Shown here: positions 54,140 through 60,704 of the stretch, piece by piece
Position numbering within the stretch: the first letter of the stretch is position 1
Layout: every line of letters starts with the position of its first letter
Assembly (NCBI GenBank): GCA_963730135.1
Contig: CAVSQQ010000008.1
Coordinates: forward strand, 291,500-355,499
Direction of reading: 5' to 3'
From: an uncultured Acidobacteriaceae bacterium
Lineage (GTDB): Bacteria > Acidobacteriota > Terriglobia > Terriglobales > Acidobacteriaceae
Length of the DNA: 64,000 nucleotides
The notes under the pieces: generated by a model
Databases searched by the model: none
The model's input: the letters and a program-made list of their open reading frames with translations, nothing else
Told to the model about the DNA's origin: nothing
Position numbers and translations under genes: made by a program

Positions 54140-55279
54140 TTAGTCTCCTGAGACTCCCTGAAGTTCGGCGCTCTTCGCGGTTGTGCCGGGGGCGGCGATC
54201 TGAACCAGTGGACCGGCATGCGCTGGCTTCCACTCATTCAGCAGCTTCATTGCGCCCTCGTCCTCATACTTGCTGAAGAAGATTGCCTTGGCTGTCTGCA
54301 TCAGGCCTTTGAGCGATCCGAACGTGTAGTTCACGCCGCTGGCTTCGTAACCGGAGTGCACCATGCAGTTGGCGCACTGCGGATTGCCGCTCTCGGTGCC
54401 GTAGTTCGACCACTGAACTGTCTCCATCAATTCCTTGAAGCTGTCGGCGTAACCATCCTGCAGGAGATAGCAGGGTTTCTGCCAGCCGAAGATGCTGAAG
54501 GTCGGCATGCCCCACGGCGTGCACTTCAGATCCTTCTTGCCCATCAGGAACTCCATAAAAATGGGTGAGGCGTTGAAGCGCCACGTCTTTTTCCGGTTCG
54601 AAAGAATGGCACGAAACATCTTCCTGGACCGGGCGCGGCCAAGAAAGTGCTGCTGATCCGGAGCCTTGTCATAGGTGTATCCGGGCGAGACCATCATGCT
54701 CTCGACGCCGGCAACCATCAATTCATCAAAGTGAGCGCGGACGCTGTTGGGATCGGCGCCATCGAAGAGTGTGGTGTTCGTTGTGACGCGGAAGCCGGCG
54801 GCCACAGCGGCATGCACGCCCTCCATCGCGATGTCGTAGCCGCCCTCGCGGCACACCGAGAAATCATGATGCTCACGCTGTCCGTCGACATGGACGGAAA
54901 ACGAGAGATACTTGCTTGGCTTGAAGAGGTGCAGCTTTTCCTTCAACAGCAGCGCGTTGGTGCACATGTAGACATACTTCTTCCGCGCTACCAGTCCAGC
55001 AACAATCTCCGGCATCCGGGGGTGCAGCAGCGGCTCGCCACCGGGAATCGCAACCATCGGGGTGCCGCACTCTTCGACCGCCTTGAAGCAGTCCTCGGGT
55101 GTAAGCTCCGCCTTCAGGATGTGTGCGGGGTACTGGATTTTTCCGCAGCCGGCGCACGCCAGATTGCAGCGAAACAGCGGCTCCAACATCAGCACCAGCG
55201 GATACTTCTTCCGGCCGCTGAGCTTCTGCTTCAAAACATAAGTTGCAACCGTCCAGGCTTGCGAGACTGGCACTGCCAT
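54140..55279 (-). CDS. hpnH: Adenosylhopane synthase, radical SAM
   Basis: LMLEPLFRCNLACAGCGKI (CxxxCxxC), GGEPLLH, CANCMVHSGYE. Confidence 0.95.
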   Translation of the reverse strand: MAVPVSQAWTVATYVLKQKLSGRKKYPLVLMLEPLFRCNLACAGCGKIQYPAHILKAELTPEDCFKAVEECGTPMVAIPGGEPLLHPRMPEIVAGLVARKKYVYMCTNALLLKEKLHLFKPSKYLSFSVHVDGQREHHDFSVCREGGYDIAMEGVHAAVAAGFRVTTNTTLFDGADPNSVRAHFDELMVAGVESMMVSPGYTYDKAPDQQHFLGRARSRKMFRAILSNRKKTWRFNASPIFMEFLMGKKDLKCTPWGMPTFSIFGWQKPCYLLQDGYADSFKELMETVQWSNYGTESGNPQCANCMVHSGYEASGVNYTFGSLKGLMQTAKAIFFSKYEDEGAMKLLNEWKPAHAGPLVQIAAPGTTAKSAELQGVSGD

Positions 55280-55338: not shown

Positions 55339-57366
55339 TTACGCTGCCGCTGCTTCTTTCTCCATGGCGCGCTTGTAGGTCGTCAGCGCCAGAAGCGGGA
55401 AATAATCCCGGTACAGGTGGTAGGCAAGATAAAACACCCGCGGAAACCCTGTGCCGGTGTAGACTGCTTCGCTGTTGCGGTCCGCTGCCGACTCGTCCCA
55501 GCTTCCATTCTCCAACTGTTTGGTCACCAGCCAGCGAATGCCCTTGGCCACGGAGTCGCTTCTGGTGTCGCCGGCCGCAAGCAGTCCCAGGAGAGCCCAC
55601 GCCGTCTGCGATGGCGTGCTCGGCCCAATGCCGCGAAGGTTCGGATTGTCGTAGCTGGTGCAGGTCTCGCCCCAGCCGCCGTCGGCATTTTGCACCATGC
55701 GAATCCACTCCGCAGCCTGCTGGATCGCCGGCTCATGGTTCCATACTCCCATCGCCTCCAGGCCGCGCAGCACCAGGAAGGTGCCGTACAGGTAATTGAC
55801 GCCCCAACGGCCAAACCAGCTTCCGTCCGACTCCTGCTCTTTGAGAACGAACTGGATCGCCTTCTCCACGCGTTTGTCGCGCCGGGTGTAGCCGTAGTTC
55901 GCCAGCATCTCAAGAATGCGGCCTGTGATGTCGACCGTCGGCGGATCGAGCATCGCGTTGTGATCGGCAAACGGGATGTACTCGAAGATCATCTTCGTGT
56001 TGTCTTTATCGAAGCTGGCCCAGCCGCCATTTTTGCACTGCATGGCGAAGATCCAATCCAGCGCTCGCTGCGAGACATCGATCTGATTGCGTTCCCGGGG
56101 GTGACTGACGCAATTAAGAGCAAGAAGAACCTGGGCGGAATCATCTACATCCGGGTAAAACTCATTGTTGAACTCGAAGTACCACCCACCCGGCTGCACA
56201 TTGGGGAGACTCATCGACCAATCGCCCTTAGTGCGGACCTCTTTCGACATGAGCCAATCCGCGGCTTTAATCATGCGGGGATCCGTCTTCTCAATTCCGG
56301 CCTCGCCCAGCGCATAAACCGCCTGTGCCGTATCCCACACCGGAGACGAACACGGTTGCATGCGGAAGGTCGGGGTGGGATAGTCGGGCTCGCCGTCGGG
56401 ATTGTCGATGCCGAGTTTTTCGAACTCGTCCATCGCGCGAATGAACTGCGGATCGTCCGGGGTATAGCCCAGGCAAGCCAGCGCGATCAGAGCATTTAGC
56501 ATGGCGGGATAGATTGCGCCCAGGCCATCTGATTTCTCAAACCGCTCCAGCATCCACTTCTCCGCCTTCTTCAAAGCGATCGTGCGCAGCGGGCGAATGT
56601 GAACTCGCTCGGCCCAGTGAGCGATACGGTCGGCGGCAAGAAAGATATTTCTCCATCCGAAGATCTTCTTCTTGTCCCACTTCAAATGCAGATTCGCATT
56701 TTCGCGGCCGCCGACGAAGAGCTCATCGATTCCCTGCTCTTTCGTGATTTTTTTGAATGGCTTCTTCGCGTAAGCGATCGACAGCGGCACGACGATCGCC
56801 CTCGACCAGGCGGAGATCTCGTAGATATTGAAGTAGAACCACTTCGGAAACAGAACCAGTTCGGGCGGCACCGCCGGTACGGCATCGTACTCATACTGCC
56901 CCATGAAGCACAGGTAAATCTTGGTGAAGGTGTTCACCTCGGTCACGCCGCCATTGGCGAGGATCCACTTGCGCGCCTTCACCAGCACGGGGTCGTCGAC
57001 CGGACGGCCCATCAGTTTCAGCGCAAAATACGCCTTCACCCCAAGCGAGATATTCGATGGGCCATTGGGATAGATACTCCATCCGCCGTCTTCGTTCTGT
57101 TGTCGAAGAATCTCATTGACGGCGCGCTCCATCCTTCCGCGATCGCCCGTACCCAGCAGGGTGTGGACGAAGATGTAGTCTGACTCCAGCATGCTGTCGG
57201 CTTCGAGTTCACCGCACCAGTAGCCGTCAGGATGTTGCAGGCCGAGCAGCCAGTCTTTGGAGCGCTCAATGCCTTCGGCAACATGCTCGAGGCCGAGATC
57301 CATCCGTCCAAAGCGCGGTTGCGCCGGCTGGTTTACCGCCTTCGGATTGCTTGAAAAAGTCCCCAT
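55339..57366 (-). CDS. shc: Squalene-hopene cyclase
   Basis: YPDVDDSA (DxDD), QW repeats (QxxDGxW), WFGRWGVNYLYGT, TGTGFP. Confidence 0.97.
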   Translation of the reverse strand: MGTFSSNPKAVNQPAQPRFGRMDLGLEHVAEGIERSKDWLLGLQHPDGYWCGELEADSMLESDYIFVHTLLGTGDRGRMERAVNEILRQQNEDGGWSIYPNGPSNISLGVKAYFALKLMGRPVDDPVLVKARKWILANGGVTEVNTFTKIYLCFMGQYEYDAVPAVPPELVLFPKWFYFNIYEISAWSRAIVVPLSIAYAKKPFKKITKEQGIDELFVGGRENANLHLKWDKKKIFGWRNIFLAADRIAHWAERVHIRPLRTIALKKAEKWMLERFEKSDGLGAIYPAMLNALIALACLGYTPDDPQFIRAMDEFEKLGIDNPDGEPDYPTPTFRMQPCSSPVWDTAQAVYALGEAGIEKTDPRMIKAADWLMSKEVRTKGDWSMSLPNVQPGGWYFEFNNEFYPDVDDSAQVLLALNCVSHPRERNQIDVSQRALDWIFAMQCKNGGWASFDKDNTKMIFEYIPFADHNAMLDPPTVDITGRILEMLANYGYTRRDKRVEKAIQFVLKEQESDGSWFGRWGVNYLYGTFLVLRGLEAMGVWNHEPAIQQAAEWIRMVQNADGGWGETCTSYDNPNLRGIGPSTPSQTAWALLGLLAAGDTRSDSVAKGIRWLVTKQLENGSWDESAADRNSEAVYTGTGFPRVFYLAYHLYRDYFPLLALTTYKRAMEKEAAAA

Positions 57367-57396
57367 GAATACAAACTCTCTGTCTGCGGTTCTCGT

Positions 57397-58410
57397 TTAC
57401 CGGCCAACTGGCGGAGCCGATGCAATGGCCTGAACGATCTCCGGCGGCAGGCCGAAGCGCACATTCTCCGGCATTACCTCCACCTCGTCGACCGAACCAT
57501 AGCCCATGGTCTGCAGATATTCGACAACATCCTTCACTAGTACCTCGGGAGCGGACGCACCTGCTGTCACTGCGACAGTATCAACGCCCTTAAGCCACTC
57601 GGGCTGAATGGCATCGGCTGTATCGATCAGGTAAGAGTTGGTGTCGAGATTCTTCGAGACCTCGACCAGCCGGTTTGAGTTCGAGCTGTTCCGCGAACCG
57701 ACGACCAGAACCAGGTCCGCGCCGTGCGCTACATTTTTGACGGCTGTTTGACGATTCTCCGTTGCATAACAGATGTCCTGAGCATGCGGGCCGACAATGT
57801 TGGGAAACTTCTTCTTCAACGCCTCGATCATGTAGCGGGCCTCGTCCAGCGAGAGCGTCGTCTGCGTAAGATATGCCACCTTATCGGGATCCGGGACCAC
57901 CAGGGCATCGACCTCGGCTACGGTAGAAACCACCTGGGTGACGTCGGGCGCCTCGCCCTGGGTGCCCTCGACCTCTTCGTGATCGCGGTGCCCCACCAGC
58001 ACCAGCGAATAGCCCTGCTTGGCAAATTTGATCGCCTCAACGTGAACTTTGGTCACCAGTGGGCAGGTTGCATCGATCACCTTCAAACCCCGCTCCTTCG
58101 CCCGCTCCCGGACCGCCGGCGAAACCCCATGCGCAGAGTAGATTACCCGCGCGCCTTCGGGCACCTCGTCCAGCTCATTGACGAAGATCGCGCCCTTCTT
58201 GGCCAGATCCGTGACCACGTAGCTGTTATGCACAATCTCTTTGCGGACATAGATCGGCGCGCCGAAGGTATCCAGCGCAATCTGGACGATATCGATGGCC
58301 CGCACCACACCGGCGCAGAAGCCGCGTGGCTTGAGAAGAAGTACCCGTTTGGTTTTGGTTGAATCGCCGTTCCGGCCTGCGGCAACGTGCTCAAGGGTGG
58401 TTGTAGTCAC
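57397..58410 (-). CDS. ispH: 4-hydroxy-3-methylbut-2-enyl diphosphate reductase
   Basis: PRGFCAGV, EIVHN, SAHGV, DATCPLVTKVH, ICYATENRQ, TAGASAPE. Confidence 0.97.
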   Translation of the reverse strand: MTTTTLEHVAAGRNGDSTKTKRVLLLKPRGFCAGVVRAIDIVQIALDTFGAPIYVRKEIVHNSYVVTDLAKKGAIFVNELDEVPEGARVIYSAHGVSPAVRERAKERGLKVIDATCPLVTKVHVEAIKFAKQGYSLVLVGHRDHEEVEGTQGEAPDVTQVVSTVAEVDALVVPDPDKVAYLTQTTLSLDEARYMIEALKKKFPNIVGPHAQDICYATENRQTAVKNVAHGADLVLVVGSRNSSNSNRLVEVSKNLDTNSYLIDTADAIQPEWLKGVDTVAVTAGASAPEVLVKDVVEYLQTMGYGSVDEVEVMPENVRFGLPPEIVQAIASAPPVGR

Positions 58411-58505
58411 GTCTACAAGTATACCGCGTTCAACCCGCCGCAGGAATTAGTTTGAACCAATTTAGGTGCAACCCCGAACCCCCCAAAAGCGCAGAAAAGC
58501 CGCAA

Positions 58506-58538
58506 AAGCCGCGAACAAAATGCAGCGTTCAGCGGCTT
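58506..58538 (-). terminator. Hairpin downstream of metallothionein gene (possible terminator/REP-like)
   Basis: Minus strand AAGCCGCTGAAC...GTTCGCGGCTT followed by T-runs. Confidence 0.45.
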
Positions 58539-58579
58539 ACGCGCATCGTCAGCGCATCGTGGCGAAACAGGCCTTCTCT

Positions 58580-58735
58580 CTAAAGCTTTTGCGAGGCGCA
58601 GGCAGGATGACCGCAGTCGCACTGCAGTTTGGTCTCAGACTTTGCCGCCTGGCAATACGCGGAACAATACTTCTCACCCGGCGGAACCGTACAAAGACAG
58701 CCCTGCATCGCACACTTCTTCGAATCTGCAGACAT
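58580..58735 (-). CDS. Bacterial metallothionein, SmtA/BmtA-like, 51 aa (not in ORF track)
   Basis: MSADSKKCAMQGCLCTVPPGEKYCSAYCQAAKSETKLQCDCGHPACASQKL; 8 Cys + 1 His; AGGAGG 7 nt before ATG. Confidence 0.88.
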   Translation of the reverse strand: MSADSKKCAMQGCLCTVPPGEKYCSAYCQAAKSETKLQCDCGHPACASQKL

Positions 58736-58853
58736 AGCGCATCCTCCTGAAATTCTTCTGAAATGTTTCTCCCCCTGAGATGCAGGTTCGCTGCGACAAG
58801 ATGCCGGGGCGGCTCCTCTTATCCAATGCTTTCCACTTATCGGTTGCTTTCCA

Positions 58854-60548
58854 CTATCGGCTGCTCTCCAAAAGATGAGCGGCGTGTTTCAGGCTGGTCT
58901 CCGTGAGCTTGGCCCCACTCAACATGCGGGCGATCTCCTGGGTTCGCTCGGACTCCTCCATGCGGCGAACCTGAGTCTGCGTGCGGCCGCGCTTCTCCGT
59001 CTTCTCAATCAGGAAATGCTGGTCCCCAAACGCCGCGATCTGAGGAAGATGGGTAATGCACAACACTTGCTGACCCTTTGCCAGCCTCTTCAACTTCCGC
59101 CCCACCGCCTCGGCTGCCCGTCCACCGATGCCGATATCGATCTCATCGAAGACCAGCGTGCGCGGCAGAGGAGCCTTCTTCTTCCGCGCCGAGCCTCCCA
59201 GCGAGGCCTCTTCGACCGTCACCTTCAACGCGAGCATCACGCGGGACATCTCGCCGCCGGAGGCAATCTCATGCAGCGGCTTCATCGGCTCCCCCGCATT
59301 GGTCGCAATCAGGCACTCCACCTGGTCCCAGCCATGAGTGGTCCAACTCGCCGGCGACTTCTCCGCCGTCACCTGCACATGAAACTTCGCGCTCATCGCA
59401 AGATCGTTGATCTGCGCCTCCGCCAGCTTCTCAAGCCGTTTCGCCGCGTCGGCACGCCCGGCGGTAAGCTGCGCTGCAACCTTGCGATAAGCCGCCGCGT
59501 CCAGCTCTTCCTTAGCCTTCAACTCCACCAGCAATGCGTCCCTGTTCTCCACCTCGCCCAACTGCCGCGCCGACTCTGCACCGAAGGCGATCACGTCCTT
59601 CAGTGTCTGGCCATACTTCCGCTTGAGCCGGTCGAGTGCCGCCAGCCGGTCCTCGATCTCCTCCAGACGCCCCGGAGCGGCATGAACACGGTCGGCAAAG
59701 TCGCGCACCTCGGCGTCGACGTCCTCCACAATCGCCTTCGCCGCGGCCAACTGCTGTGCCGGTTCCTGAAATCGCGGGTCATACCGTGCCAGCTCCTCCA
59801 CCTGCTTCAGCGCCGCACCCAGGGCGCCCTCGGCAGAGCCCTCCGACTCATACAGCAGCTCATGCGCGCTCATCGCGGCCGTGTAAAGCTTCTCCGCATT
59901 GGCCAGAACTCGTTTCTCCGCCTCCAGCTGTATGTCCTCGTCCTCGGCAACCAACCCCGCCTGATCGATCTCCTTGCTTTGAAACCGCCAGAGGTCCGCC
60001 ATTCGCAGACGATCCTGCTCCGCAGACTGCAACTCATTCAATTTGTCGGTCGTCGCGCGCCATGAAGCAAATGCCTCCGCAACCCCGTCGCTATTCAATC
60101 CGCCAAAACGATCCAGCAGGCTGCGCTGCTGCGCCTGGTCGAACGAACCCAGGGTTTCGCCCTGCGAGTGCACCAGCGCGAGTTCCGGCGCAAGCTGCCG
60201 CAGCACACCCACCGTCGCCGGCTGATTATTGACGAACACGCGGCCTTTGCCGTTGGATACGATCTCCCGTCGCAACAAAACATGATCCGACTCCGAGTCG
60301 ATTCCGTTCTCCTCGAGGATCGCGGCTGCTCCCGGCGTCAGCTCAAAAACGCAACTCACAACTGCCTTCTCTTCCCCATGACGAATCACGTCGGCCGACG
60401 CCTTGCCGCCCAGCAGCAGCGCAAGCGCATCGATCAAAATGGACTTGCCCGCGCCCGTCTCACCCGTCAGAAGGTTCAGGCCACCCCCGAACGCAGCGAC
60501 GGCACGGTCGATCACAGCATAGTTTTCCGCACGCAACTCCAGCAGCAT
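58854..60548 (-). CDS. recN: DNA repair protein RecN
   Basis: MLLELRAENY, TGETGAGKS, ASGGEMSR, VFDEIDIGIGG, CITHLPQIAA. Confidence 0.97.
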   Translation of the reverse strand: MLLELRAENYAVIDRAVAAFGGGLNLLTGETGAGKSILIDALALLLGGKASADVIRHGEEKAVVSCVFELTPGAAAILEENGIDSESDHVLLRREIVSNGKGRVFVNNQPATVGVLRQLAPELALVHSQGETLGSFDQAQQRSLLDRFGGLNSDGVAEAFASWRATTDKLNELQSAEQDRLRMADLWRFQSKEIDQAGLVAEDEDIQLEAEKRVLANAEKLYTAAMSAHELLYESEGSAEGALGAALKQVEELARYDPRFQEPAQQLAAAKAIVEDVDAEVRDFADRVHAAPGRLEEIEDRLAALDRLKRKYGQTLKDVIAFGAESARQLGEVENRDALLVELKAKEELDAAAYRKVAAQLTAGRADAAKRLEKLAEAQINDLAMSAKFHVQVTAEKSPASWTTHGWDQVECLIATNAGEPMKPLHEIASGGEMSRVMLALKVTVEEASLGGSARKKKAPLPRTLVFDEIDIGIGGRAAEAVGRKLKRLAKGQQVLCITHLPQIAAFGDQHFLIEKTEKRGRTQTQVRRMEESERTQEIARMLSGAKLTETSLKHAAHLLESSR

Positions 60549-60704
60549 AGAGGCCCTCAGGCAACGACGTAACGCGAGGATAGCAAACCTCCAAGGTCTC
60601 TCGTCAGGAACCTTCCTGTGCACCCGAAAGAGCTGGCCACGGCAGATGCGCAGCCGAATTTTTGCTCCATCACGATTTACACTAAGGACTGGTGGACACT
60701 AACT

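Follow-up and report, generated by a model that had tools for sequence, protein, structure and literature searches.

Bacterial metallothioneins have been described as few and poorly known, with cyanobacteria, Pseudomonas and Mycobacterium as their main sources (PMC13578184; PMC3323870), and recent lists still hold only the cyanobacterial, Pseudomonas and Mycobacterium proteins with a few from other bacteria (PMC13578184). In the BmtA proteins, to which SmtA belongs, the zinc-finger site of SmtA (site A) is fully conserved and structurally essential, and it needs a four-coordinate ion, which has been argued to exclude Cu(I); Y31 of SmtA is a determinant of the fold, packing on A37 so that a CH-pi contact joins the hairpin to the helix (PMC3323870). 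An adjacent SmtB gene is often missing for BmtA genes and is not required for membership of the group (PMC3323870). The Pseudomonas metallothionein PflQ2MT, also of the BmtA type, does without the labile site C of SmtA and binds three zinc ions (PMC10612145). Our literature search found no paper connecting metallothioneins with Acidobacteriota or with hopanoids, and nothing relevant on the Pfam family PF02069 (Metallothio_Pro).

The gene described here lies in a 64-kb window (the whole stretch of DNA that was analysed, 64,000 nucleotides), where a sequence-only reading had proposed a hidden metallothionein gene directly upstream of a set of hopanoid genes. The gene and its immediate neighbours are as follows.

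58580 to 58735, minus strand: 51-aa Cys/His-rich open reading frame, a candidate SmtA-like metallothionein (open reading frame list, conservation, hhalign)
58743 to 58748, minus strand: Shine-Dalgarno sequence AGGAGG, 7 nt 5' of the ATG (read from the sequence)
58854 to 60623, minus strand: recN, the upstream neighbour (longest open reading frame 589 aa; Pfam SMC_N/AAA_23)
57397 to 58410, minus strand: ispH/lytB, the downstream neighbour (Pfam LYTB, E 1.6e-96)
55339 to 57366, minus strand: shc, squalene-hopene cyclase (Pfam SQHop_cyclase_N and _C)
54140 to 55279, minus strand: hpnH (Pfam Radical_SAM and DUF3463)

The open reading frame is present exactly where it had been placed, and its 51-aa translation is MSADSKKCAMQGCLCTVPPGEKYCSAYCQAAKSETKLQCDCGHPACASQKL. 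It is the only copy of the gene in the window, and GGAG-type motifs occur at the position matching its Shine-Dalgarno sequence in most orthologous loci. Conservation, on which the sequence-only reading had staked its claim, is extensive, with 21 proteins of 70–84% identity to the window protein found by a single-sequence search and 319 homologues by a profile search. In a set of 31 syntenic orthologues of equal length, synonymous change has reached saturation (pS 0.47–0.92), pN against the window gene lies at 0.10–0.20 for close relatives and reaches 0.34 for distant ones, and the median pairwise dN/dS is 0.13. At the codon level this is almost certainly a genuine protein-coding gene. The description of the gene as hidden was right as far as function is concerned, the named cluster members of the family being annotated as 'hypothetical protein' and two distant relatives as 'metallothionein' (JGI), but the protein itself had been called before: an identical one is already among the public gene calls (NCBI/ENA), on a 1.54 Mb metagenome-assembled contig with identical locus and neighbours. 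The 589-aa recN frame begins with GTG and exceeds both the 564-aa public call (L088) and the orthologues by 25 codons, and the true recN start is probably the downstream one.

The profile check that had been suggested for membership of PF02069 fails, the window protein scoring 11.6 bits (E 0.33, profile positions 2–50 of 51) against a gathering score of 33 bits. None of the single sequences among 150 family members reached this gathering score (best E 2.5e-4), a search of NCBIfam with the window protein gave no match, and the precomputed Pfam annotation was blank in all 120 of the relatives listed. PF02069 was the sole recurrent weak Pfam match, occurring in 21 of 22 close and in 101 of 150 diverse members, and with scores below the cut-off the family is to be treated as a sister of PF02069 rather than as a member of it. 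SmtA itself (PDB 1jjd) was matched with an E value of 6 by the single sequence, 4.2 by the close-family profile and 0.25 by the wider family profile, for which it was the best PDB sequence match.

Alignment of alignments was more sensitive. When the family was compared by hhalign with the SmtA clade, represented by SmtA and ten PF02069-positive cyanobacterial proteins, the match had a probability of 94.9% (E 4.7e-8), and with the 150-sequence family alignment one of 93.6% (E 2.1e-7), the matches extending over 46–50 columns. As a Cys-rich composition could inflate such scores, reversed and shuffled controls were run: the real score was 37.7 and that with the reversed SmtA alignment 10.9, while 200 column shuffles of the SmtA alignment averaged 11.1 (sd 2.7, maximum 23.4), which places the real score about 10 sd above them. 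On the strength of these comparisons the family is very probably a distant homologue of the SmtA/BmtA metallothioneins.

The correspondence extends to the individual motifs. The pairs that had been matched by eye were recovered by the alignment programs, KCAMQGCLCTV with KCACEPCLCNV and CGHPAC with CGHTGC by HMMER (against PDB 1jjd) and YCSAYC with YCSEAC by hhalign. Like SmtA of Synechococcus PCC 7942 (PDB 1JJD), the proteins of the window family are about 50–56 aa long and carry collinear KCAxxxCxC, [Y/F]CSxxC and CGHxxC motifs. The four Cys of site A are retained, C8, C13, C24 and C28 aligning by hhalign with SmtA C9, C14, C32 and C36, and so is the equivalent of Y31, an aromatic residue that precedes the third of them. 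Further pairs are C15 with SmtA C16, and C41, H43 and C46 with SmtA C47, H49 and C52, the CGHxxC motif that we take to supply cluster ligands in SmtA.

The differences are equally well defined, and here the earlier bookkeeping of ligands (Met at the second ligand position, one His and the last Cys lost, a Cys gained in CDC) proved correct by hhalign. Met10 aligns with SmtA C11, a position held by His or Met in the family, Lys32 aligns with H40, and no Cys matches C54, whereas C39 is an extra Cys, part of a CxC before the GH and situated inside a two-residue insertion. The complete Zn4Cys9His2 ligand set of SmtA is thus absent from the window protein, with C11, H40 and C54 changed or lost, and the family has 8 Cys with 1–2 His where SmtA has 9 Cys and 2 His. 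Unlike in SmtA, the position of A37 is held by Gln or Glu (Gln29 in the window protein, mostly Glu in the family), and the loop of the beta-hairpin is 7 residues shorter in the window protein.

An AlphaFold2 model of the window protein, metal-free and built from the 150-sequence alignment, has a pLDDT of 79 and shows short strands at residues 6–7 and 16–17 and helices at 26–31 and 44–50; a modelled SmtA relative (pLDDT 80) has two such strands and the helix that starts at residue 26 in matching order. Searched against the PDB with Foldseek, this metal-free model had no match, 1jjd included. The model of the SmtA relative, used as a control, recovered 1jjd (E 3.4e-6, TM 0.78) and the PflQ2 metallothionein entries 6grv, 6gv6 and 6gv7, so that the missing match for the window protein carries information and is not blindness of the tool; if anything, it tilts the comparison of folds away from simple membership of BmtA/SmtA. 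The shortened hairpin, a helix predicted at the C-terminus and the lack of metal in the model may be among its causes. Searching the PDB with the family profiles did not retrieve PflQ2 MT (P. fluorescens Q2-87; 6GRV, 6GV6, 6GV7). It is the closest precedent for a reduced set of ligands and for the stoichiometry to be expected, and differs in possessing a disordered His-rich tail which the window protein lacks.

The family is large. Searched exhaustively by profile, 1.84 billion cluster representatives yielded 1,441 clusters (50% identity) at E<=1e-3 and 153 at E<=1e-10, and a scan of one genome per species gave 401 loci, the best 80 of which belong nearly all to Acidobacteriota and include Edaphobacter, Tunturiibacter, Granulicella, Acidobacteriaceae KBS 89 and other Terriglobia. 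Metal-resistance genes are common on plasmids; a tblastn search of 72,556 plasmids with the window protein and a His-type relative gave no match. Two tandem paralogues of the small gene (L047:4968-5150 and L047:5389-5544) were seen between recN and ispH at one locus, labelled Gammaproteobacteria but with acidobacterial-like flanking genes and so probably mis-binned.

From 297 relatives, a sample in which close relatives of the window protein are over-represented, the family signature is C-A-[H/M]-x2-C-x-C-x7-[Y/F]-C-S-x2-C-x10(-13)-C-x-C-G-H-x2-C, giving a ligand inventory of 8 Cys, His43 and a His or Met at residue 10. In 69 diverse members C8, C13, C15, C24, C28, C39, C41, H43 and C46 are invariant. 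An aromatic residue precedes C24 in 294 of the 297 relatives (Tyr in 255, Phe in 39), and in the motif C41-G-H43-x-x-C46 the His is present in 296/297 and the Gly in 255/297. The two losses relative to SmtA are general, there being no His between C28 and C39 in 272/297 and no Cys or His beyond the last Cys in 276/297. Residue 10 is the variable one: His in 186/297, Met in 77/297, Asn in 15/297 and others rarely. Met10, kept in 20 of 22 close homologues, is a mark of the subclade to which the window protein belongs.

Our preferred reading, to which we assign a probability of about 0.6, is that the small protein is a BmtA-type thiolate cluster protein binding several Zn or Cd ions. C8, C13, C24 and C28, whose invariance is observed, would form a structural Zn(Cys)4 finger equivalent to site A of SmtA, while C15, C39, C41, H43 and C46, perhaps together with His or Met at residue 10, would bind further Zn(II) or Cd(II) through bridging thiolates, in one cluster. 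With 9–10 ligands to the 11 of SmtA, and no equivalents of H40 and C54, about three metal ions rather than four would be expected. The protein would then serve in Zn/Cd buffering or sequestration, and possibly in thiol-based scavenging of oxidants. With three of the eleven SmtA ligands altered or lost, a multi-metal cluster is not a certainty.

The alternative that survives best, although we consider it unlikely, is that of a zinc-finger or zinc-ribbon mini-protein, structural or regulatory in role and no store of metal, whose fold, with one or two structural Zn sites, would serve to bind a protein or nucleic acid. Blindauer et al. reportedly described such 'SmtA-like zinc fingers' in 2002, E. 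coli GatA among them, and the window family resembles these in having a treble-clef Cys4 site within a small protein. Unambiguous counterparts in SmtA exist for the site A ligands only, the Foldseek search with the window model did not recover the metallothionein fold, and outside Acidobacteriaceae the neighbours of the gene are regulators and general-stress genes with no metal transporters, all of which would suit this alternative. GatA-type fingers, however, keep essentially the finger ligands only, whereas the window family keeps five more Cys/His, which are invariant in more than 290 sequences and include the CxCGHxxC motif. So dense a set, nine invariant ligands within about 40 residues and spaced as CxC, would be typical of a shared cluster and not of a pair of independent fingers.

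Next comes the suggestion, made in the sequence-only reading, that the changes in the ligand set may alter the cluster stoichiometry or the metal preference, possibly towards Cu(I). In its present form it would apply to the Met10 subclade, which would prefer Cu(I) or be otherwise retuned, a thioether taking the place of a His or Cys ligand. Met is a known Cu(I) ligand, and its retention in 20/22 close homologues and 77/297 relatives is compatible with such a role. Some close orthologues, however, have Gly or Ala at residue 10, and other members of the family His, Asn, Arg, Lys or Tyr; with this variability Met10 is not an obligatory ligand. Tetrahedral coordination is moreover needed at the zinc-finger site of BmtA proteins, and when copper was added during expression of SmtA the protein held only about 1.5 Cu (PMC3323870). 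A Cu(I) preference, for which Met10 is the one argument, is not favoured by us, and we regard the retuned subclade as improbable.

The genomic setting bears on both the regulation of the gene and its supposed link to hopanoids. The small gene, recN, ispH, shc and hpnH are all on the minus strand, and their co-directionality had been correctly noted. Beyond hpnH follow an hpnA-like epimerase gene and an hpnG-like gene of the phosphorylase superfamily, also on the minus strand, while exbB, exbD and tonB lie past recN on the opposite strand. It had also been said that no ArsR/SmtB repressor gene is adjacent, and this holds for the neighbours in the window and for four other contexts inspected in detail; no metal-sensing regulator or metal transporter stood beside the small gene in any context inspected. 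In this the gene is like the BmtA genes, which are small, easily overlooked and often without an adjacent SmtB (PMC3323870).

The order recN, small gene, ispH, shc, hpnH was found in about 50 of 81 loci, all of them Acidobacteriaceae-like, and it holds even where the small protein is only 49–59% identical and has His10. In other Terriglobia the small gene was seen at about 30 loci with no recN, ispH or shc in the vicinity. Outside Acidobacteriaceae its neighbours include genes for DUF892 (7/33), DUF6496 (5/33), an ECF sigma factor (4/33) and response regulators (12/33), and three further contexts contained RecQ, phosphoglucomutase or nothing notable. A DUF892 gene (YciE/YciF-like, ferritin-fold) was observed within 3 kb of the homologue at L037, L040, L048, L050, L069, L071 and L079. 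The occurrence of DUF892, ECF sigma factor and response regulator genes near the homologue suggests a general-stress gene island, and the neighbourhoods point to a role in general stress rather than to dedicated metal resistance.

Three elements were recognised in the intergenic regions on either side of the small gene.

58779 to 58804, minus strand: bipartite motif GCATC-N16-GCATC (consensus RCATC-N16-GCATCC), conserved in syntenic loci
58486 to 58543, minus strand: terminator-like hairpin AAGCCGCTGAAC...GTTCGCGGCTT with T-runs, 37–94 nt past the stop codon
58418 to 58471, minus strand: ispH upstream element, TTGCACC-N6-GGTTCAA followed by ACGCGGTATACT, 7 nt and the GTG start, in 46/50 syntenic loci

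The bipartite motif is the sole exact match in the 64-kb window; about 40 syntenic loci carry RCATC-N16-GCATCC at the equivalent site, and it is seldom met elsewhere. The distance from its second half to the ATG is 48 nt in the window and 31–53 nt in most loci, and the register is fixed at 21 nt with a spacer whose sequence is unconserved. It appears to be a promoter-like element, of unassigned sigma type: a scan for the sigma-70 consensus found no promoter, and a sigma-54 promoter (GG-N10-GC) was considered by eye and rejected, the spacing being one off and unconserved. A search of Rfam with positions 57000–60000 gave no match, so that the intergenic regions there contain no known RNA element. 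A direct repeat upstream of the small gene was considered as a regulator site. It covers 58814–58870 (minus strand) at the 3' end of recN, where the last ~17 nt, GGAGAGCAGCCGATAG, are followed by the degenerate tandem copies GGAAAGCAACCGATAAG and GGAAAGCATTGGATAAG (TRF period 17–18, 2.3–2.5 copies); the extra copies are absent from orthologous loci, and the repeat is therefore taken to stem from duplication, on the spot, of the 3' end of recN and not to be a regulatory site.

Downstream of the small gene, the hairpin has a dG of -22.6 kcal/mol and a T-rich tail, part of which structure is flagged by a consensus scan; a comparable hairpin with T-tail occurs in 22/50 orthologous loci, and the whole 116-nt fold has a z-score of only -1.5. 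The pentamer GATGC was also observed in this region, at 58545–58566 of the window (minus strand), where CGATGCGC occurs twice, 11 nt apart; it is conserved about 25–40 nt past the stop in most Met-clade loci and is the reverse complement of the upstream GCATC half-sites.

The arrangement TGCACC-N6-GGTTCAA and then ACGCGGTATACT, 6–7 nt before the GTG of ispH, is shared by 46/50 syntenic loci. L051 has the palindrome in perfect form (TTGCAC-N8-GTGCAA), L045 and L059 come close to it, and the copy in the window is imperfect. The element looks like an operator joined to a promoter -10 box that would serve ispH itself, and transcription of ispH, shc and the hpn genes may be started and regulated there. 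Given the spacing of 6–7 nt between ACGCGGTATACT and the GTG, the ispH mRNA is possibly leaderless and GTG-initiated. A LexA box, GTTC-N7-GTTC, has been reported for Acidobacterium capsulatum; a near match to it, noted by eye in the ispH upstream element, was found in the window only and is unconserved, and this candidate was rejected. The motif and hairpin belonging to the small gene and the separate element of ispH argue for separate transcription units, and the small gene probably has its own, which would start at RCATC-N16-GCATCC and stop at the downstream hairpin.

A link between metal and membrane stress responses, hinted at from the position of the gene between recN and ispH-shc, was not upheld, the order being limited to Acidobacteriaceae and the small gene and ispH having separate promoter-like elements. 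In its most specific version the small protein would be an accessory, a donor of metal or Fe-S or a redox partner of the [4Fe-4S] proteins IspH and HpnH, and co-expressed with them. That the order of five co-directional genes is kept in about 50 Acidobacteriaceae loci despite identities of 49–59% would fit this, and since hairpins are detectable in only 22/50 loci read-through is possible. Against this, relatives of the gene in other Terriglobia and beyond lie away from ispH, shc and recN, ispH has its own TATACT-N6/7-GTG element and operator-like palindrome, a different conserved motif precedes the small gene, and recN and ispH are functionally unrelated, so that the order may reflect vertical inheritance. 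We find an accessory role of this kind very improbable and any functional link of the small gene to hopanoids highly doubtful; most likely, the adjacency to ispH-shc is a lineage-specific gene order inherited within Acidobacteriaceae.

That the open reading frame is spurious or the region non-coding has a negligible chance of being correct, for although the frame has only 51 aa and is overlapped by a 94-aa frame on the opposite strand, codon-level conservation (median dN/dS 0.13), the invariant Cys/His pattern, the Shine-Dalgarno sequence and hundreds of orthologues of fixed length effectively refute it.

Taken as a BmtA-type cluster protein, the small protein belongs to an unnamed sister subfamily of BmtA/SmtA that has been missed by the thresholds of Pfam and NCBIfam, and does not represent a new principle. 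The chances seem to us evenly balanced that proteins of the pattern KCA[H/M]xxCxC...[Y/F]CSxxC...CxCGHxxC make up a widespread, functionally unrecognised second branch of bacterial metallothioneins, abundant in a dominant soil phylum, the Acidobacteriota, with a rebuilt cluster of 8 Cys and 1–2 His and a stress-type promoter in place of a metal sensor, in which the Met10 clade would have retuned the labile site. For annotation, the signature and the family alignment could seed a new family model. If metal clusters are indeed bound, current Pfam and NCBIfam models would be missing most of the superfamily, the residues found at one position (Cys, His, Met, Asn) would offer a natural ligand series for the tuning of cluster lability, and the Acidobacteriota, among the most abundant phyla of soils, would own a dedicated Zn/Cd buffer, which would matter for how metals are cycled and tolerated in acidic soils.
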